IMG/VR virus record: IMGVR_UViG_2917398303_000002
Span: 1-40,825 of that record
DNA from: a virus
Taxonomy: Duplodnaviria; Heunggongvirae; Uroviricota; Caudoviricetes
DNA: 40,825 bases
Strand: one strand, 5' to 3'
Below, piece by piece: positions 1 through 39,227 of the stretch; within the stretch, counting starts at the first letter, position 1, and every line of letters begins with the position of its first letter. The notes under the pieces were generated by a model. The model was not told the origin of the DNA and searched no databases. It saw only the letters and a program-made list of their open reading frames with translations. Made by a program: the position numbers and the translations under genes.

Positions 1-1158
1 ATGCTCACCGTTAAGCAGATTGAAGCAGCAAAGCCGAAAGAAAAACCATACCGCCTACTCGATGGTAATGGCCTGTACCTTTATGTCCCTGTATCAGGGA
101 AAAAGGTATGGCAGCTTCGCTACAAGATTGACGGTAAGGAGAAAATCCTGACTGTCGGAAAATATCCGCTTATGACTTTGCAGGAAGCAAGGGATAAGGC
201 ATGGACCGCAAGGAAAGACATCTCAGTTGGCATCGATCCGGTAAAGGCGAAAAAGGCTTCGTCTAACAACAATTCCTTTAGTGCGATTTACAAGGAATGG
301 TACGAGCACAAGAAGCAAGTCTGGTCTGTAGGTTATGCTACTGAACTTGCAAAAATGTTTGATGACGACATTTTACCTATCATCGGCGGCCTTGAAATTC
401 AGGATATTGAGCCGATGCAACTTCTTGAAGTAATCCGCAGGTTTGAAGATCGCGGTGCAATGGAGCGAGCCAACAAAGCACGCAGAAGATGCGGCGAGGT
501 TTTCCGTTACGCTATTGTCACCGGAAGGGCTAAATATAACCCAGCACCTGACCTTGCTGACGCCATGAAGGGATACCGCAAGAAGAACTTCCCGTTTCTT
601 CCTGCAGACCAGATCCCGGCATTCAACAAAGCCCTGGCAACATTTTCAGGAAGTATCGTATCGCTCATTGCCACCAAGGTTTTACGCTATACAGCCCTAA
701 GAACGAAAGAGCTTCGTTCCATGCAATGGAAGAACGTCGATTTTGAAAACAGGATTATCACCATCGACGCCAATGTGATGAAGGGACGCAAAATTCATGT
801 GGTCCCGATGTCAGACCAGGTGGTTGAACTTCTCACTACGCTAAGCTCCATCACTAAACCAGTATCAGAGTTTGTTTTTGCCGGACGCAACGATAAGAAG
901 AAGCCAATCTGCGAGAACGCGGTGCTACTTGTGATCAAGCAAATCGGCTATGAAGGTCTGGAAAGCGGTCACGGATTCAGGCATGAATTCAGCACTATTA
1001 TGAACGAGCACGAATGGCCTGCTGACGCTATTGAAGTGCAACTGGCACATGCCAACGGCGGATCTGTGCGTGGAATTTATAACCATGCTCAGTATCTCGA
1101 TAAGCGCAGAGAAATGTTGCAGTGGTGGGCGGATTGGCTTGATGAAAAGGTGGAGTGA
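1..1158 (+). CDS. intS: Tyrosine integrase, P4 family (IntS-like); the ORF begins exactly at the window edge and appears complete
   Basis: N-terminus LTVKQIEAAKP...YRLLDGNGLYLYV...VWQLRY is the arm-binding motif of P4-type integrases; C-terminal catalytic region with HxxR-type motif (GHGFRHE); position directly upstream of gtrABC as at argW in E. coli K-12. Confidence 0.9.
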   Translation: MLTVKQIEAAKPKEKPYRLLDGNGLYLYVPVSGKKVWQLRYKIDGKEKILTVGKYPLMTLQEARDKAWTARKDISVGIDPVKAKKASSNNNSFSAIYKEWYEHKKQVWSVGYATELAKMFDDDILPIIGGLEIQDIEPMQLLEVIRRFEDRGAMERANKARRRCGEVFRYAIVTGRAKYNPAPDLADAMKGYRKKNFPFLPADQIPAFNKALATFSGSIVSLIATKVLRYTALRTKELRSMQWKNVDFENRIITIDANVMKGRKIHVVPMSDQVVELLTTLSSITKPVSEFVFAGRNDKKKPICENAVLLVIKQIGYEGLESGHGFRHEFSTIMNEHEWPADAIEVQLAHANGGSVRGIYNHAQYLDKRREMLQWWADWLDEKVE

Positions 1159-2590: not shown

Positions 2591-4111
2591 ATGTTTTCAA
2601 AAGAAACGATAAATAAATTATTTTATTTTACATGCATAATTTCATGCTTGGTAACCATATTCCTTACATCTAGATTTAGCTATACATGGATCACAGATCC
2701 TGATTCAGCAAATAGCCCTATAATGTGGAAAGAGTTTTTGGCACATGGGTTTAATGCTTTCAATAACTGGAAGCCAACATTTGATAACTGGTATTTTACC
2801 GTATACCCTATAAATTTTCTTTTATTTTTCATTTTTAATGAAAATGGCTTTGTGCCTTTAATGCTTTCCAGTGCGATTTTCATAATTGCAATTTGCCTAT
2901 GTTCATCAAAGATCGCAGATATGTTATCTGGTAAAACTGCTGCTTTTGCAGCATTAATATCAATAACACTAATATCTCCAGATCTATATAGCAATTATTA
3001 TTCGCATCCTTTTTCTCATAATTCAACAAATGCATTCGGATTTGTTGTATTAGCAATATACATAATAACTCTCTCAAGCAAGAAAATAATTCCTGCCGCT
3101 TCCATTTTTATACTCTTAGTACTTTCTGGAGCTTCTGACCCTTGGATATTACCATCTTTTACACTACCTATATTGATATCTGAGGCTTACAATTCATTCA
3201 TCAATAGAAAAAGTTACAAATACTTTATCTTTCTATTGCTTGCATTTTTAACATCTTATTTGAATCTAGTTCAACACCTTTTTGATCTACCGACTGGCGA
3301 GTTCAAAATAACAACATTTGAACAGATGATATCTAATGCACAGTATGCAATAGTATTAACAGCAAAAATGATGCCATTGTGGGTAAACCCATCAGCATCT
3401 ATGTCATATTTTATTGTTTTAATATGGGTAGCCGTGTTCATAGCTGCTGCTTTAGTTTGTTTTAATAGAGGTAAAGAATTACGCATCTTTTCTATTTGCT
3501 GCGTCCTTTCAGTCCTTGGAATTTACTCTTCATCTATAATTGGAGATCAATTCCCGCATCAACGTTTTTATGTAAATGTTGCTCCCGTTGTTTTCTTGTT
3601 AACCTCTGTAGCCATAAGATTTTATAAAGCTTTCTTAATACCACTTTTCATAACTATTTGTGTTTCTGTTTATGGGTATTGTAACTCACCATTAAAATAC
3701 GAAGAAAATAAAAACCCAGTTTATGAATATATGACCTTCCTTTCCAACAATAATCTAAGTTATGGTTATGGTAGTTTTTGGTATTCTATGAATATGACAG
3801 TGAATTGGTTATCAAAAGACCAAATACATATAACACCTGTTTTCTTTAACCCTGAAACTGGTGTTGTGTATTTTCAGCCTGCAAGAATACAAACACTGTC
3901 TTCATGGCATACAAAGGAATTCATAAGCGGTAAACCAAACAGACAATTTATTGCCATAACTCAGGGACAAACCGGTGGTGATACATGTCCAAACGTTCAA
4001 ATATGTATTGATGGTGCTCAGAAGCAATTAGGAAAAGCCGATGAAATCCTATCATATAAGAACACGACATTCTTGGTGTACAACAAACCAATTGAAACAG
4101 ATATAAAGTAA
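2591..4111 (+). CDS. GtrC-type serotype-specific O-antigen glucosyltransferase (polytopic membrane protein), family not assignable
   Basis: 506 aa, many hydrophobic segments, third gene of gtr operon; conspicuously AT-rich compared with flanking genes. Confidence 0.6.
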   Translation: MFSKETINKLFYFTCIISCLVTIFLTSRFSYTWITDPDSANSPIMWKEFLAHGFNAFNNWKPTFDNWYFTVYPINFLLFFIFNENGFVPLMLSSAIFIIAICLCSSKIADMLSGKTAAFAALISITLISPDLYSNYYSHPFSHNSTNAFGFVVLAIYIITLSSKKIIPAASIFILLVLSGASDPWILPSFTLPILISEAYNSFINRKSYKYFIFLLLAFLTSYLNLVQHLFDLPTGEFKITTFEQMISNAQYAIVLTAKMMPLWVNPSASMSYFIVLIWVAVFIAAALVCFNRGKELRIFSICCVLSVLGIYSSSIIGDQFPHQRFYVNVAPVVFLLTSVAIRFYKAFLIPLFITICVSVYGYCNSPLKYEENKNPVYEYMTFLSNNNLSYGYGSFWYSMNMTVNWLSKDQIHITPVFFNPETGVVYFQPARIQTLSSWHTKEFISGKPNRQFIAITQGQTGGDTCPNVQICIDGAQKQLGKADEILSYKNTTFLVYNKPIETDIK

Positions 4112-4148: not shown

Positions 4149-6272
4149 TTAATAATTCCCCTCAGAAAGGAAGCTGTAAACCCCGGGACCACCTGCAATA
4201 TTACATGTCCATGCCTTTGGTTGTCCTGAAGCAGGTGCGCTATTGATAACACGTTCGCCTATATCCCAGAAACCGGATGTAGGTACAGACGAAAGATAAA
4301 ATGTTGTTTTTTCAATTTGTAACGCATTTGATGGCATTCCATATACACAAAGAGACGGTGAGTTTATGAGTACATTTCCTGAACCATAATTTCTTATGCC
4401 AACATTTATAGCTGTAGCCGTTGCGTCTATATACACACCACAACTAACATAGCGCCATTTCCCATTACCAGCTAAAGGTGCTGTAGAGTCTGTTTGTCCT
4501 GCACCATTAACTATAAACATAAGTTTTGACGCTGCTCCCTGGTCATTTACCCACGCACCAAACCATACAAATTTCCCTTTTAGTTCTGGTGATTTGTTGA
4601 GGTCTATCGTTCGTCCCCAAACTCTATCTCCTGCCGTAACTAAGAATGAATAATTACCAGCATAAATGTTTTGAGTTTTTATCAATGCTCCTGTCGTTCC
4701 AGATGCCGCGTTCCAAAGCAACATATTTCGATCAAGATAGTTAGCAGTTAACTCTCTGTTCGCAATATCTATTAAATGAGCAGTATCAGGGTTTTGTGTC
4801 GCTGGATCATAACTTCCAACATACCCTATCGAATTGACCGTATTGTTAGCCAGATACAATCTATCTGTAACTTTAGACGAAAGATTATTACGGTACATTA
4901 CCAATAAATTGTTTACTTTAGATGCATCCAATAATTGATTATTTTCGATTGTCAGGTTTTTAGCATAGTTTGTGAATATAAAACCATCCTGATTAGGGAG
5001 GGAACTGGCGTAACCGATTGCAGTTTGCTGGTTTCCTCGAATCGAAACTGTATCATTAATCTTTGTTACGTCAGGTATTAATGTAAACTCATTAGCAATG
5101 AGATGAATATCGGCTTTAATGTTTATAAATTCCGGAGTACCATATGGATATCCACTTTCGCCGTTACGCTCCCAATAGTTATCATCCAAATTAAGTCCCT
5201 TAACCCCGAATGACATAAACCCGTATAACTTATTTTGCTCAATATCATTTCCGTTTACACGGACGCTCATACCGCCCTCGGCATACGCCGGAGTAAGCAA
5301 GATGCCTCCAGCACCATTACCATAAATACGGTTATTGATGATGTTAAGATTATTACATACCCCACCAATGTTAAGCGCATTTCCTGTGTTTGTTAGCAAA
5401 CGGCAGCCAATTATATCTATTGAGTAACCATTAATTAAGATAGCGTTACTTGTAGTGCCGGTTACATCTACATTTTCAATTTTGATATGGTTGGCGTTAG
5501 GAAAATTTATCCCATTAGCTGAGTAATTATTACCATCTAAGCCAAAGTCTCTAAGCTCACAGAAAGTAATTGGGTCGCTTTGCTGGGTTATGATTGGTTC
5601 GTTTGTTCCAGTAGAGAAGATTCTGGACTGATATGCGCCAGCACCTCGTATCATGGTGACAATATTTTTAATCGTTATACCAGGGTCAATAATGAACGTC
5701 CCCTCAGGGATAACAATCTCCGTTGGCAACGTAGCATCATCAATGGCTTTCTGGAATGCAGCCTTGTTTTGTGCTCCGCTGTTATCAGCCTTAAATCCAT
5801 AATCTGATAATGTTCGCACATCAACAGTCAATTTATTGGCTAAAGGGAGTGATGTTGACCCGGTGAATTGTGGATTGTGCATAACTAATGAATCACCAAG
5901 AGAGTGATTATCGCTTAGCAATTGACCTTTAAATTGGTCCGGGTCGTATTTAAGCACATTCGGAAAATAAAACTGTTGTACCCCATACGCATCGTACACA
6001 GCCATAGAATGGCCTTGCACAGTTACGAACTTCGCAATTTGTCCGTTGTATACCGGATATCCAGCGGTATTTATCACGATAGGCTGCGCAACAGGAACGT
6101 AAGATCCGTCTTCATTCTCAATATAAACCTGAATCTGGTTTTCAGGATTTACTGGGTCTTCATCTATTTTACCAATAAAGATTTTGCCATTTGATACAGT
6201 TTTAAAAGAACGAGCCATAGTGAACAATTGGCTAGGCATGCTTACCACAACATTTGCGGCGATATCTGACAT
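4149..6272 (-). CDS. Tailspike protein (P22 gp9-like N-terminal head-binding domain, divergent beta-helix receptor-binding/enzymatic domain)
   Basis: N-terminus [13 protein letters not shown]...[28 protein letters not shown]...[13 protein letters not shown] closely resembles the P22 tailspike head-binding domain; remainder rich in N/G/T repeats typical of right-handed beta-helix. Confidence 0.85.
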
Positions 6273-6390
6273 TTTGTAACTCCAGAGGAAGGATATGATT
6301 CAATTTTGATATTATTGAATACCTAAATGGTACTATTGAGTATTTATCCAGTAGGTTACGATGCCGTTCCACCCAACTGGTGAGGCATCA

Positions 6391-6654
6391 ATGATGTACA
6401 GCAAATACGACGAAGCGCAGTTTCATTTGAGACTTGCGCATGAACTCCACACCAAAATTAAGCAGCGTGCGAAGATGAATAACAGGTCACTGAACTCAGA
6501 GATAATTGCAGCGATTGAAGAATCACTGGCTAAACAAAGCACTGCATCTTTTTACAATGACGATGCTGAGCGTATTGCAGACCAACAATCCGATATGGTA
6601 AAGAAAATTGTCTTTGATACGCTCAGAGATTTATATAAAAAAGACTGCAACTAA
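6391..6654 (+). CDS. mnt: Mnt-like ribbon-helix-helix repressor (P22 immI Mnt homologue); start set at Met preceded by GGTGAGG
   Basis: C-terminal ...NDDAERIADQQSDMVKKIVFDTLRDLYKK matches P22 Mnt C-terminus as recalled; RHH N-terminal region; Shine-Dalgarno GGTGAGG 5 nt upstream of ATG at 6391. Confidence 0.75.
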   Translation: MMYSKYDEAQFHLRLAHELHTKIKQRAKMNNRSLNSEIIAAIEESLAKQSTASFYNDDAERIADQQSDMVKKIVFDTLRDLYKKDCN

Positions 6655-6671
6655 CCATCCGTGGCTTTCCG

Positions 6672-8975
6672 TTACTTCTGGTTGTCATCACTGTTCATCC
6701 AGTACATGATGCCTAGCCTTGATATGGTTTTCTTATCTGATTCTGGAAGTGAGTTGTAAAACGAGCGCCAAGCAGAAGAGCGTCTTACAGTTGTATCAAC
6801 GATGCTTTCTGGTGCTTGTTTTACTGCCAGCCTTGCTGCTTTCTGGAATTCTGGTGAGCTAATTAGCTTTTCTGCAGATTCCATTGATGCAGCGCCGCCC
6901 ATCGCCCTGATTTTGCTGGCGACTTTTGCCCCAATTTCTGACCCAGCAACAGCACCTACTGCACTGAACGGTCCTGACACAGTTGAACCAACCGCAGTGC
7001 CAATGCGTTGGGCATGGTTAGCAACAAATTCATTTGCCACAGTGACGCGATTAAACCGTTTGACGAACTCGTTTAGTCTTCCTGTGGTTATCTCGTAAGA
7101 TTTTGCGTCTTTGATAGCCTTTGCGACCTTATATACATCGTTCAGACCTGACATAGTCTCTTTTGGTAAATGTCGGGCAAGATTGCGCATCTGTCCGTTT
7201 GCTAACATGTTTTGATACCAGTCAGCAAACCCTGCAGGATTAAAATCAGCACCACGTTTTCCGTTCGAAAGCATATCCCGAAGACCTGTTCCCAGTAGCT
7301 CGGTTCTTAGCTTCCTGGACGGCGTGTTTTGCATCAATTCACGGAATCCTTTGGCATCGCCTTTCGACATTGCCTGTAGTGCTGTCGTTGCTTTGCGAGA
7401 AACATCACCGTTCAGCGTTCTGCCAGTAAGATTAATCATTTGCTCTTCCATACTTTTTCGCATCTGAACAAGCCTCTGAGCAACTTCAAAATCACGTAAT
7501 GCAATTGTCCCTGACAGCGCCGTCTTTTGATCATCGGCGAGCGAACCGTAAAGCCTCGATAAGGCAGCACGATCAGCATCTTTATATGGTCCAGAATTCT
7601 TATGAAGTGCATCACCAACAAGTCGTCGTTGCTTATTGAGATTTGCATAAGTTAATGCGCCGTTCTTGCCTGGATTAACTGCCTGAAAGACTCTCTTTTC
7701 AATAGGGTCAAGGTTTTTCATCCCGCCAAGATCTTCTGCCACCTGTTTGAGCATTGACCTTGTTGATGGCGCATCAATTTTTGCACCTGCAGGCATCGCC
7801 TTTTCAACATTGCGATAAAGCTGGTCGCTTCGTTTCATCAGGGCAGACATTCTTCCATTGACCGTATCAATAAACTTGTCGCTCATACCAAGAGCATCTT
7901 TTGCACCGGAAGCGCGATCAATTATCTTCCCCGCGCTCTGTGCTAGCTGCCTGATTGCTTCATTTTCCTGCACCTGTAGAGCAGAACCCGCACGGGACTT
8001 GATTGCTTGCTCAACAGCCTTGTATTGCTCGTTCCCGGAAAAGTGTGAAGGGAGTAATGAATCAACATTAAGCTTTTCAGCAGACTCCAGAACTTCAGCC
8101 TGAGGATTGATATCTAATTCATCAAGCGATGAAGCGAGATTTGGCCTTTTTTGTGCAGCAACTGTGCGAACGACTTCCTCTGGGTTGCTCGTCGCAGGCG
8201 TCATTGGTACACCTTGTGCTACTCTTGCCTCTGCGGCATGAACCGCAGGATTTGTTGCTGCAGCGGCATCACCGGAGAATGGTGATGTTTCTGTTGGCGC
8301 AGGGGTCGCTCTCTGTGTAGATGTTTTATTACCACTAATTATACTTGATGCGCCACGAACACCACGGGTAACGCCATTTATCAGGCCATGCGTAGCAATG
8401 TTAAGTCCGGCATTAATAGCGGTATTTTTGGCAAAATCCCCCTGTTGATTCGCCGCGTCCGCGAGAGAACCAATGACCATGTTTCCAGCTACACCTGCTC
8501 CAGGAACAAGATAACCGCCTATTGACTCTCCAGCTTGCGCATACGGATCCGTTGGCCGGTTAACTGGTCTATATACTTCATCAAGAATCTTTGGTCCATC
8601 AAAACTCTGAGATGCAGCATTAATGAGACTCGCCCCCCCCTGAAGAACGTCAAAAGGAATATTTACAAATCCTCTTACAGCCTGCTCGGCAATTTGCCCT
8701 ACGCTTTGCCCACCAGTTAGCCATTCTCCTGCACGCTGCATAAGTGATTTGTCTTGCTGAATGGCATCAGGAGATTGCCTTACTTCCTGCTGTTCTGTCT
8801 GCACAGATGGCAATGGATAGGCAGCATAGAAAGCTTGCTTAGCCTGCTCTGCATTTTCTCCGGCTTGCGGGGCCACGACTTCATTGAAGTATTGCTCCTG
8901 AGCCTGCGCTTTTTGTTCTGGTGCTAACGCCTGATACTGTGGAGAGGCGATAACATCTTTCCATGCTTTAGCCAT
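6672..8975 (-). CDS. Ejection (injection) protein, P22 gp16-like, extended version
   Basis: Position as last of three ejection protein genes before mnt/tailspike; Ala/Gly/Gln-rich low-complexity composition typical of gp16; 767 aa. Confidence 0.65.
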
Positions 8976-10369
8976 TAATCACCCCATAGTGAAGAAAAGT
9001 TACTGCTGGCTGCAGGCTGTGATACCTGTGCAGGTTGAGATTGCTGCCGCTGAGATTTACCAACATTAACGTTATATTGTTGGTTGTAATTGTTGGTGTA
9101 TTCCTGAATCTCACGAATCGACTGCTGCATAGCCTCCGGGCTTGAATAGTCAACCTGCGGCATCCCCTGAAAATACATCTTCGCTTCTGCAACGGTGTTG
9201 ATACCACTGGCCCCCATGTCCCTTGCTGCCGCCACACCCTGATTCTGCATTCTGCCCTGAATACGTTGTGCTGAGTTATATAACTGGCGCTGCTCTTTTC
9301 CTGTTAATCGGCTGCGAACATCAGCACCAATTGCCGGGCTACCTGCACCGCCTGTTATTCCTGTCATGAAATCGAGAGCAGAAGCATCTGCATTTGCGAT
9401 CGCGTCGATATCCTTCTTCATGGCATAGTTTTGTGCTGATGCAGACGATGTTGCAGGCGCAGCGATTGAACTGGCAGGGACGCGAACCATATTCCCATCG
9501 TTGTCGATGCCTTCGTAGAACGCATTAGCCCCAGCGCCATGAAGCTTCCCGCCTACAGTTACAGTTCTGCCATCTGATAACTGAACTGTACGCTCATCAT
9601 TCCCAGCGGTTCCTCTTGTTGACGCTCGCTGCATTGCCAAATCCTGCCCGCGTCGCGCAGTAGAAGCAGATAAATCCTGACCGCGCATCGTGATGTTCTG
9701 ACCTCGTGCTGTTAGCGCCTCGCCAGCCTGATTGCTGCGGATTGTCTCTGCAAGTTTTCCGCGATCAATCTCACGCCCAACGATTCTGTCTTGCGCCTGA
9801 AAATATTGTTCTGGACCAAGTGCAGCCATTCCAAGGTGATCAACAAACTCTGTGAAACCTTGTGGATTTTGCTGATACATTTTCGCCACATCCAGAGGGT
9901 CTACTCCGGCACGAGTAAGCTCAGATGAGTTGTTCTGCAACCATGACATCATGGCTTCTGGAGATGAAGCTGCGAGTCTGGCACTTGCTGCCAGTGTACC
10001 GACAGTGGAACGCTGGTCTTCATCGACAAATTTCATGCCGTTTCTTACAGCGTCAAACTGCTCAGGATACTGTGATGCCAGCTTTCGCATTGCATCGCGG
10101 TCACCAGATGTATATGCATCAGCATAAGCCTGCTGAAACTCTTGCTGCCGCTTCTGCTGATCCATCTGCTTATACATATCCATGACAGATGAAATACCCT
10201 GCAAAGCCTGCAAGCCAACGTTATTACGTCCTGAACGCTCCATCTCATTATTCTGTCGAATGTATGCAAGCGTGGCGTCTGCATCACTTGCTCTTGGAGC
10301 GTTGGAGTTCATGCCGCCTAACCCGGCAAGAAGCGCGCCTGAATTACCAGCCTGTTGCCATGTAGCCAA
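8975..10369 (-). CDS. Ejection protein, P22 gp20-like
   Basis: Synteny (between gp7-like and gp16-like), size 464 aa, Q/A-rich. Confidence 0.7.
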
Positions 10370-15705: not shown

Positions 15706-16616
15706 TATCGAATTCCTTTATTCAGTTGCGCCTTGAGCTTGCGGTACGTCTCTACATCCCCTTTGTTTGCTGCCGCTTCCATCTGCTTTTCAATCGCAGA
15801 GATATTTGCAACAACAGCGTGTCCCTGAATGGGTTCATCAGGTAGCGGGGCTTCTGAAACAGGTTTGGCTCGAGGCTTGAGAGTTAAACGTTCTGACAGT
15901 CGAGTGAGTTCAATCAGCGCGGATTGCCCGTCCATCGCCAGCAACTGGCGTGTTTTCTCAGGATTAGCACCAAGGTGATACATGAGAGCAGCGGATTTCT
16001 CCGGGAAGAGACGCATGATATCGGCACCGACTGCTGGCGGCACCAGTTGCATGAATGCATCCTCTTTCTCCTGATAGTCAGGGATGTTGAGCTTTTCCGC
16101 TGCGTCGTAGTGCTTACGGGCTGCCTCGACGTATTGCGCTGATTGCTGGGTGAACTCCTGAGTTTTGCGACCCTGCTCGGCGACAGCCTGGCTTCGTGCG
16201 TCCATAGCCTTGATCTGCCATTCACTGTTTGCCTGCTGGAAGGCAGCCAGTGCGCGGCTCTGGTCATAGTCGTACTTAGCCAGTGCATCTTCGGAAAGAT
16301 AATCGTTAGGGTCTGGTTGTTTTGGTAACTCAGGGTTCACCCGCAGGTGCTCCGGCAACTCTCCACGCTTAACCGCTTCCATCTGCTGCTCAAGCTCACG
16401 CTGGCGTTTGCGTTCGATGCGGCGACGGGCAAATTCAGCATTAGTTGCCGGGTCTTGTTTTGGTTTCTCATCGTCTTTCAGGACAATCTCGAAGCCTTCT
16501 TCCTGACCTGCGTTGTCGTTGGCATTATCGACAACTAAGCCATCAGCAGATGCCGCTGCATGATTGCCGGGCAGGGTTAATTCTTCAGAAGCCTGAATGT
16601 CGGTGGTTTGGTCCAT
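15705..16616 (-). CDS. Scaffolding protein, P22 gp8-like
   Basis: 303 aa, highly charged alpha-helical composition, between portal and coat. Confidence 0.8.
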
Positions 16617-21464: not shown

Positions 21465-21995
21465 TCACACCATTCCGGGCAAATACATTTGCACTTCATT
21501 TGCCGCTCTCTCACGTGCAACATGAAGCAATCTTTTTCGCCCACCAACGCCCCACTTAGCCATTTGGCTTGCGCACTGGCTTATCGCTTTGGTTTCAGTA
21601 TTGATGATGTGATCGATTCTATTCAGACGGGACATTGCGCCAACGCCGAGACGGACGACCGTTTTGAAAACTTCATAAACTTCGATTTCAAATTCCGGCT
21701 TAATCCATGCTGCATATCTGATTGCCAAAAGTTCAACACCCCACACACCTGGTTCTGCACCACCTTTGATTATTTTAAGTGGCTGAATTTGTTCCAAAGT
21801 GCTTTTTTGCACTTTGGCTTCCAGTGCTTTTATGAAGCGTTTTATCTGCGCGCTACGCAAAAACTGGCTTGGGCGCTGTTGCTCTGTAGCCTCTCCATTT
21901 GCAACTGCTGCTGCATGGAGATCGTTTAAGTTGTAGCGTCCGTCCTCATCAACACGAACGGACACACCATTGACAATAACTGTTGGGTACTTCAT
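21465..21995 (-). CDS. KilA-N domain protein
   Basis: N-terminal ...DEDGRYNLNDLHAAA... motif characteristic of KilA-N DNA-binding domains. Confidence 0.6.
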   Translation of the reverse strand: MKYPTVIVNGVSVRVDEDGRYNLNDLHAAAVANGEATEQQRPSQFLRSAQIKRFIKALEAKVQKSTLEQIQPLKIIKGGAEPGVWGVELLAIRYAAWIKPEFEIEVYEVFKTVVRLGVGAMSRLNRIDHIINTETKAISQCASQMAKWGVGGRKRLLHVARERAANEVQMYLPGMV

Positions 21996-37776: not shown

Positions 37777-37940
37777 TCCCGCCGTACACCAACGTCTACC
37801 ATTGTCTATAAATCCCATGTAACCATATAGAAATAAAGAGATTTTATTCTCATGACGTCCATTACCGTCTATTGAAATCAAGTAAATCTATGGGGCATAA
37901 TTGGGGGCATTGCTGGTTCGATTGTATATGTGCCCCCAAT

Positions 37941-39227
37941 ATGTCCAGAAATACCCTCAACAAATTAACAGACCGTCAGTGCAAAACAGCTAAGCCACGA
38001 GACAAAACTTATAAATTGTCTGATGGTGGTGGTCTTTATCTTGAAGTATCCCAGACCGGGTCGAAGTATTGGCGTATGAAGTATCGCCGTCCATCAGATA
38101 AGAAAGAAGACAGACTTGCTTTTGGTGTATATCCAACCATTAGCTTACAAGATGCCAGAGAGAAACGAGACAACGCCAGAAAGTTGTTAGTCAAGGGGAT
38201 AGATCCCAAAGCAGAGCAAAGAGCAGCCAAAGCAGAAGAAAAAGGTGCATTCACTTTTGAGACAATAGGACGTCAATGGGTTGAAAGCCACCAGATGTGG
38301 AACGAAGCCCACCGAAAACGCGTGCTTAGAAGCCTTGAAATGTATATTTTTCCTCACATTGGCAACTCGGATATTCGCAAACTGGAGGCGATGACAATTT
38401 TACCTTTGTTTAAGAAGGTAGATGACGCAGGGAAACACGATACAGCTAACCGACTTAAACAACGAGTAAAGGACATCATACATAGTGCCCGTCTGAGCGG
38501 CATTAAGACAGAAATTATCACGAATGATCTCGATGTCCGGTTAATGCAATATGAAACTAAGCATCATGCCGCATTACATCCCAGAGACCTACCAGACTTT
38601 TTCACTCGATTGGGAAGTTTTAGAGGTAATCCTCTTACCCGCCTTGCCATTGAGCTAACCATGTTGACCTTTGTTCGTTCAAGCGAGTTAAGGTTTGCCC
38701 GTTGGAAAGAGTTTGACCTTGATCGGGCTGAGTGGATTATCCCTAAAAAAAGAGAGCCTATCGATGGTGTGAGGTTTTCCACCCGTGGCACAAAGACGGG
38801 AAAAGACGAACATATCGTGCTTCTTAGCCGTCAGGCTGTTTCTATTGTAAAGCAGTTGAGAGAACTAAGCGGAAGCTACGATGTTGTGTTTCCGAATGAA
38901 AGAAACACCAAAGGCGTGATGAGTGAAAACACAGTAAACAAGGCATTACGTTTAATGGGATATAACACGCAAGAGGACGTAACTGGACATGGATTCCGTG
39001 CCACAGCTTGTAGTTCCTTGATGGAGTCCGGTTTGTGGCAGGAAGACGCAGTAGAGCGCCAGATGAGCCACAAAGAATATAAAGACGTTAAAAGAGCCTA
39101 CAAGCACAAGGCTGATTACTTAGAAGAGCGCAAACTAATGCTTCAATGGTGGGCAGATTATCTGGACGCCAATCGAGAAATACATATAAGCCCTTACGAG
39201 TTCGGAAGGAGAACACGCCGTGACTAA
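37941..39227 (+). CDS. Tyrosine integrase, P4 family (start placed at MSRNTLNKLTDRQ..., upstream in-frame Met codons less likely)
   Basis: LTDRQCKTAKPRDKTYKLSDGGGLYLEV...YWRMKY arm-binding motif; C-terminal HGFRAT...LMLQWWADYLD catalytic region. Confidence 0.85.
   Translation: MSRNTLNKLTDRQCKTAKPRDKTYKLSDGGGLYLEVSQTGSKYWRMKYRRPSDKKEDRLAFGVYPTISLQDAREKRDNARKLLVKGIDPKAEQRAAKAEEKGAFTFETIGRQWVESHQMWNEAHRKRVLRSLEMYIFPHIGNSDIRKLEAMTILPLFKKVDDAGKHDTANRLKQRVKDIIHSARLSGIKTEIITNDLDVRLMQYETKHHAALHPRDLPDFFTRLGSFRGNPLTRLAIELTMLTFVRSSELRFARWKEFDLDRAEWIIPKKREPIDGVRFSTRGTKTGKDEHIVLLSRQAVSIVKQLRELSGSYDVVFPNERNTKGVMSENTVNKALRLMGYNTQEDVTGHGFRATACSSLMESGLWQEDAVERQMSHKEYKDVKRAYKHKADYLEERKLMLQWWADYLDANREIHISPYEFGRRTRRD

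Follow-up and report, generated by a model that had tools for sequence, protein, structure and literature searches.

Between the tailspike gene and the preceding late gene of a P22-like genome lies what we consider, on balance, to be the smallest 'ant moron' of the P22 type: a self-regulated cassette predicted to comprise mnt, its promoter and its operator, placed antisense in the late operon. The 40,825-bp stretch of DNA analysed here (the window) comprises the complete genome of a P22-like (Lederbergvirus) prophage or phage. The stretch that separates gene 16 from gene 9 was named the ant moron by Villafane et al. 2008 (PMC2629481), and versions with Mnt only have been published for ST64T, ST104, Para1 and L (PMC2629481; PMC8022706), and also for ST160/SE1. 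The arrangement in the window, in which mnt is kept between gene 16 and the tailspike gene while arc, ant and sieA are absent, is a common, already described variant and is not new.

The late operon of the window runs on the minus strand. By tblastn, 22 P22 proteins match the window in synteny; the syntenic matches cover genes 3, 2, 1, 8, 5, 4, 10, 26, 7, 20, 16, mnt and the N-terminus of gene 9, as well as gtrA, gtrB, C2 (93.5%), Cro (98%) and the lysis genes. The local order is the gp20 homologue, the gene in the position of gene 16, mnt on the opposite strand and the tailspike gene (Table 1). The tailspike is 69% identical to P22 gp9 over residues 1-114. As the original prediction had it, mnt is convergent with gene 16 and divergent from the tailspike gene, and the coordinates of the reading frames bear this out: exactly 118 bp separate the mnt start at 6391 from the tailspike ATG, and 17 bp separate the mnt stop from that of the convergent frame. 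The latter encodes 767 residues (609 in P22; 614-911 in homologues from relatives). Its product is 72.5% identical to P22 gp16 over gp16 residues 53-194, a resemblance limited to that stretch, and has no Pfam match.

Table 1 Features of the mnt region and other genes of the window mentioned in the text.
Feature	Position	Strand	Description
Tyrosine integrase gene	1-1158		385 aa
Membrane protein gene	2591-4111	+	506 aa, multi-pass; directly after the gtrA and gtrB homologues
Tailspike gene	4149-6272	-	P22 head-binding domain and beta-helix; Pfam Head_binding (5e-64), Beta_helix (1.5e-8)
Tailspike ribosome-binding site, CTGGAG	6280-6285	-	7 nt from the ATG at 6272; homologue in the leader of P22 gene 9
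Inverted repeat, ATTCAAT-N9-ATTGAAT	6298-6320	-	would fold as a hairpin in the tailspike 5' leader; abuts the operator
Candidate Mnt operator, AATACCTAAATGGTACT	6318-6334		core TACC-N5-GGTA at 6320-6332, centre 6326; position homologous to P22 Omnt
Predicted Pmnt	6336-6362	+	-35 TTGAGT at 6336-6341, 15-bp spacer, -10 TACGAT at 6357-6362
mnt Shine-Dalgarno-like GGTGAGG	6379-6385	+	read from the sequence; conserved in relatives
mnt-like repressor gene	6391-6654	+	ribbon-helix-helix DNA-binding domain and Mnt C-terminal tetramerisation domain
Ejection protein gene in gene 16 position	6672-8975	-	last late gene before mnt; assigned by synteny after the gp20 homologue
gp20 homologue	8975-10369	-	
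KilA-N protein gene	21465-21995	-	flanked by the lysis genes and the small terminase gene
Tyrosine integrase gene	37872-39227		451 aa

The original prediction of an mnt homologue without arc, ant and sieA holds: Pfam, PDB and P22 matches identify the repressor, and tblastn gave no match to P22 Arc, Ant, SieA, Rha or orf59a anywhere in the window. Since the 118-bp interval is moreover too small for a 53-codon gene, arc is absent downstream of the operator, and the arc and ant genes (the latter with sar) under Pant that complete an immI region are missing. A Pfam scan of 20 other reading frames found a single antirepressor-like domain, in a KilA-N protein unrelated to Ant, with no Mnt-type operator near its gene. 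This gene occupies the place of rha in P22. Elsewhere in the window, two tyrosine integrase genes stand at opposite ends, and the second of them may belong to a neighbouring element. The membrane protein gene that follows gtrA and gtrB has no Pfam match; by its position, its product is a candidate serotype-specific glucosyltransferase of the GtrC type.

The mnt-like gene encodes a protein of 86-87 residues. Its N-terminal part is a ribbon-helix-helix domain matched by the Pfam Arc family (PF03869; E 8e-13), and its C-terminal tetramerisation helix is matched by Repressor_Mnt (PF11423; E 7e-15) over profile positions 3-28 of 28. With P22 Mnt it shares 50% identity over 78 residues, and it matches the structures 1MNT (E 3e-19, residues 6-79) and 1QEY (E 2e-9). 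From these similarities, the protein is predicted to form a tetramer that binds an operator and represses transcription. In work by Sauer and Susskind, operator specificity is said to be set by residues Arg2, His6, Asn8 and Arg10 of the N-terminal strand of Mnt; the aligned positions in the window protein are Lys, Gln, His and Arg. Among relatives, the N-terminal DNA-binding domain (MYSKYDEAQFHLRL...EESL) hardly varies and occurs with several different C-terminal tails, among them a P22-like ...VFDTLKELYKK, ...VFETLKTMYSNNKKET, ...VKEVAADILRKEKTRD and ...LVFERLSEHYRKK.

The reading frame, which ends at 6654, has possible starts at 6361, 6391 and 6394. The start kept in relatives is the ATG at 6394 (MYSKYDE...); the additional ATG of the window, at 6391, replaces a codon that is Arg in most relatives. 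We rejected the 97-residue frame from the ATG at 6361 as the true gene: this ATG falls within the conserved -10 hexamer, and the extension is missing from L253, a distant relative. The frame as annotated in Sf101 is therefore probably an over-extension. We also rejected the RefSeq label 'partition protein ATPase' for mnt, because the protein is an 87-residue ribbon-helix-helix repressor without an ATPase domain. The same wrong label is found on Sf101 gp14 (L001), P22 mnt (L003), epsilon34 (L325) and ST160 (L326), whose proteins are ribbon-helix-helix repressors of 83-97 residues; in GenBank, the Sf101 gene is a 'putative chromosome segregation ATPase'.

To locate cis elements, we aligned the 118-bp interval with the annotated Pmnt/Pant/Omnt region of P22. 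The anchor of the alignment is the shared sequence CTATTGAG, which contains the -35 hexamer of Pmnt. Directly 5' of it stand Omnt, AGGTCCACCGTGGACCT, in P22 and AATACCTAAATGGTACT in the window. The original prediction had reported no clean palindromic operator in the interval; yet a partly symmetric candidate is there. It is a 17-bp pseudo-palindrome that adjoins the repressor's own -35, as an Mnt operator does, though the window copy is only 5/8 symmetric. Its centre lies at about -43 from the predicted start of Pmnt, compared with about -42 in P22. Taken alone, the 4+4 inverted repeat is not significant (0.36 matches expected by chance with one mismatch allowed), and the window holds no second copy at one mismatch.

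Relatives strengthen this assignment. The operator core keeps a fixed distance from mnt in 80 of 82 loci, these loci having been picked by protein similarity. More symmetric versions occupy the same place in L253 (AGTACCAAAATGGTACT), L329 (CGTACCTAAATGGTACG) and L328 (CGTACCGTTAAGGTACT); relatives of this type, at 53-68% protein identity, have the recognition strand QFHLR and keep GTACC-N5-GGTAC. Across three natural classes, the residues of the recognition strand and the operator half-site change together: HFNFR with AGGTCCAC in P22 and epsilon34 (class 1), QFNLR with AAGACCAC in Gally and ST160 (class 2), and QFHLR with AGTACCA in the window family (class 3). One and the same DNA-binding domain and operator, meanwhile, are found with at least three C-terminal tails and many different tailspikes.

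The predicted Pmnt is the positional homologue of the annotated P22 promoter (TTGAGA-17-TATCAT), and its start site is inferred to lie near 6369. A homologue exists in every lineage, and 23-28 nt lie between the end of its -10 and the mnt ATG. With its short 15-bp spacer and a score of 8/12, the window copy falls below the threshold of a generic promoter scan, which over positions 6100-6800 returned nothing in the interval; it was recovered solely through homology with the annotated P22 promoter. A scan for intrinsic terminators between gene 16 and the tailspike ATG was likewise negative.

The interval also contains an inverted repeat in the tailspike leader, next to the operator. We considered and rejected it as the Mnt site: the window and the common variant have different sequences there despite identical recognition residues, and it is absent in leaders of the L006/JEP4 type, which have an unrelated hairpin. 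In the common variant, the repeat reads ATGCAAC...ATTGCAT, where T>G is compensated by A>C. Every type of tailspike leader has a hairpin of 5-8 bp about 20-45 nt before the ATG (in the window, L010, L006, L003 at 16162-16178, L253, L328 and L329), with unrelated sequences; besides the two stems already given, examples are CCGTAGC/GCTGCGG in P22 and CCGCAAGG/CCTTGCGG in L253. The stems vary by compensatory substitutions, and their G-U pairs are compatible with the tailspike-sense RNA alone. Single-fold z-scores of the leader RNAs, from -0.4 to -1.8, are not significant.

Selection acts on both the gene and its control region. Over 53 distinct class 3 sequences, the dN/dS of mnt is 0.146 (ribbon-helix-helix domain 0.096, C-terminal part 0.235), and 184 of the 187 copies are intact. 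The operator has a nucleotide diversity of 0.007, the promoter one of 0.009 and the rest of the interval one of 0.013-0.026, against 0.10 at third codon positions of mnt and 0.33 at those of the tailspike gene; operator and promoter are thus 10-15 times less variable than the third positions of mnt. Because mnt is under purifying selection and the interval varies less than neighbouring synonymous sites, the cassette is not a decaying relic.

The layout is widespread. The same 118-bp interval occurs in Sf101, in IME10 and in 65 of 80 IMG/VR loci, which were found with the protein; among 5426 complete E. coli genomes, at least 120 are matched over 80% or more of the region and 284 over part of it. 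An mnt gene directly beside the tailspike gene also occurs in Gally, JEP4, ST160 and VSe13. Two close relatives, the Shigella phage Sf101 (with gp14) and IME10 of E. coli, share cassette and interval with the window at 87-91.5% DNA identity (91.5% for Sf101) and 86% protein identity; the IME10 gene is unannotated. Their interval differs from that of the window in its tailspike-proximal half. There, 12 of the first 52 positions (6273-6324, up to the left arm of the operator) depart from the common variant; the 66 bp on the mnt side (6325-6390) show one difference from the variant found in almost all other loci. This mosaic look suggests a recombination junction at or near the operator.

Compared with the immI region of P22, the window has the same two-domain Mnt in the same position and orientation between genes 16 and 9, and shares CTATTGAG, the layout of Pmnt and the operator next to its -35. 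It differs by the loss of arc, ant, sar, sieA and orf59a, by a degenerate Pant, by the recognition strand QFHLR instead of HFNFR, by the half-site (A)GTACC instead of AGGTCC, and by a Pmnt spacer of 15 rather than 17 bp. The Salmonella phages ST64T, ST104, Para1 and L have likewise kept mnt between genes 16 and 9 without arc, ant and sieA. However, the regions of this group contain one more small gene (orf62 in L, orf64 in ST160) and are longer (836 bp in L), whereas in the window mnt is the sole gene, close against the frame in the gene 16 position; ST160, in addition, belongs to operator class 2 and the window to class 3. Escherichia phage Gally, from E. coli LF82, also has an annotated Mnt divergent from the tailspike gene without arc or ant. 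Its Mnt is 61.5% identical to ours and of class 2 specificity, its operator is a perfect palindrome, and its gene 16 is separated from mnt by two extra moron genes.

Two kinds of insertion are seen around the cassette in relatives. A homing-endonuclease gene of the HNH (+AP2) type, encoding 162-179 residues on the mnt strand, sits as an insertion at the extreme 5' end of the tailspike gene. It is present in about 16 of 196 related loci, and likewise in Rahnella-like relatives: in L005, L012, L020, L043 and L082 with a gap of 651 bp, in L019, L070, L080 and L083 with a gap of 724/725 bp, and in L328, L331 and L332. The first tailspike codons remain there as a remnant beside an intact 118-bp interval. 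In distant relatives, from Rahnella and metagenomes, a cargo gene in the same direction comes after mnt (L329 4327-4740, L328 4261-4581, L331/L332 4258-4620), the products being unknown proteins of 137 and 106 residues and a 120-residue Rap1a-domain protein (type VI immunity-like). This organisation suggests that in those divergent relatives Pmnt may drive morons expressed from the prophage. There, the mnt cassette supplies a small moron with its promoter and regulator; in the window, this unit stands bare.

Gally is the only orphan with experimental data. Its mnt is at background in LB and 40-fold up in macrophages (Misson et al. 2023, PMC9928086). The tailspike gene rises with it (log2FC 4.4, about 21-fold); together with three neighbouring genes it belongs to a group that is 6- to 40-fold up, and the upstream injection and late genes are not (PMC9928086). 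This pattern may reflect some local control of the mnt-tailspike region. A delta-mnt lysogen has been constructed and survives in macrophages like the wild type (PMC9928086), which shows that orphan mnt is dispensable for survival of the Gally lysogen under those conditions.

In the mechanism that we propose, the Mnt tetramer would bind AATACCTAAATGGTACT and regulate its own weak promoter. The cassette would be expressed from the prophage and, by analogy with Gally, would probably be dispensable for keeping the lysogen alive. Transcription of the tailspike gene probably comes from the late operon, reading through the antisense mnt, since the scans gave neither an intrinsic terminator nor a conserved promoter on the way. 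The sole conserved cis target adjoining the operator is mnt's own promoter, and autoregulation alone is insufficient to explain why selection keeps mnt. Two candidate roles could account for this: repression in trans of Pant-type promoters in related phages with the same operator class, or modulation of the transcription that enters the tailspike gene.

The original prediction saw in Mnt a repressor repurposed for the tailspike gene, acting on a promoter within the 118-bp interval that the operator would overlap. Zaworski et al. (PMC8022706) had already raised the idea. That the repressor is maintained is clear from the selection data given above; the tailspike job itself we judge improbable. 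Two candidate promoters face the tailspike gene in the window, TCAATA-17-AATAAT (8/12), which has the operator in its spacer and is seen in the window only, and ACGGCA-17-AATACT (7/12) at the place homologous to Pant. The ant moron is thought to influence tailspike expression in P22 (PMC2629481), and the tailspike gene of Gally is raised independently of the upstream late genes. Against this, neither candidate has a conserved counterpart in the common 118-bp variant, the L006/JEP4 type or the class 2 orphans, the orphan lineages share no sigma-70 promoter that faces the tailspike gene from a conserved position, and the generic scan of the interval was empty. Pant itself is TTGACA-17-TATATT (11/12) in P22, so that the window copy is no strong promoter: all ant-carrying versions examined (P22, epsilon34 and the class 2 loci L333, L386 and L397) have a perfect TTGACA at -35, whereas all class 2 and class 3 orphans have (A/T)(C/T)GGCA there and no -10 in common. 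In Gally, finally, mnt and tailspike rise together, a pattern that one would not expect if the first repressed the second, and read-through from GALLYPH_14, a moron gene upstream, could account for the tailspike signal. A relic is by far harder to defend. That mnt would be a non-functional remnant of a degraded immI, hitch-hiking with the conserved head-binding domain of the tailspike on one side and the late genes on the other, is a possibility given for phage L by Zaworski et al. (PMC8022706), and it fits the loss of arc, ant, sar and sieA, the degenerate Pant and the lack of a delta-mnt phenotype of Gally in the assay used. We consider it highly improbable in view of the low dN/dS, of the intact copies, of a non-coding operator and promoter far more conserved than adjacent synonymous sites, and of a DNA-binding domain and operator that stay together across lineages with swapped C-terminal domains and tailspikes.

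The prophage Mnt of P22 represses ant. An orphan Mnt, expressed from the prophage, could do the same in trans to P22-like phages that superinfect or reside in the same cell, acting on their ant promoter where the operator class is shared, and would thereby shield the lysogen from antirepressor-mediated induction; we hold this to be rather unlikely as the explanation for the window. It would give a reason for purifying selection where no cis target of obvious value exists. For class 2 it is mechanistically possible: of 47 Mnt-linked loci with the operator AGACCAC-N-GTGGTCT, 44 are orphans and in 3 (L333, L386 and L397) a strong Pant with an identical operator precedes arc and ant, so that one specificity is shared by both kinds of phage, which coexist. 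For class 3, however, an IMG/VR search with the asymmetric operator pattern gave about 190 loci, all beside a tailspike gene or an HNH insert and none with arc or ant beside the operator. The fully symmetric pattern gave mostly chance matches in IMG/VR and two loci, L253 and L267, which are again orphans; the absence of a second operator in the window also speaks against action in trans. A broader form of the argument treats orphan Mnt cassettes as a module that is old, is stably inherited and has two operator specificities or more, selected for a job unrelated to the phage's own antirepressor: possibly 'anti-antirepressor' immunity in trans against related phages, or a condition-responsive switch that co-controls mnt and the tailspike gene outside the lytic programme, as for Gally in macrophages. 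It draws on the same altered Pant -35 and leader in all orphans and on the some 190 class 3 loci without ant, and we offer it tentatively, with limited credence.

On the ordinary reading, that of a minimal self-regulated mnt cassette, little changes for phage biology: the window holds one more variant of the most variable spot in the late operons of P22-like phages. Two annotation errors come to light with it: the label 'partition protein ATPase' that several RefSeq phage records give to mnt, and the 97-residue frame that starts inside the promoter. The three-class series of recognition residues with their half-sites is a data set for the recognition rules of ribbon-helix-helix proteins. Whether Mnt has a new function or is a remnant was a question already in print for phage L (Zaworski et al. 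2020, PMC8022706); a concrete predicted operator and promoter make it directly testable, and the selection data argue against a remnant.
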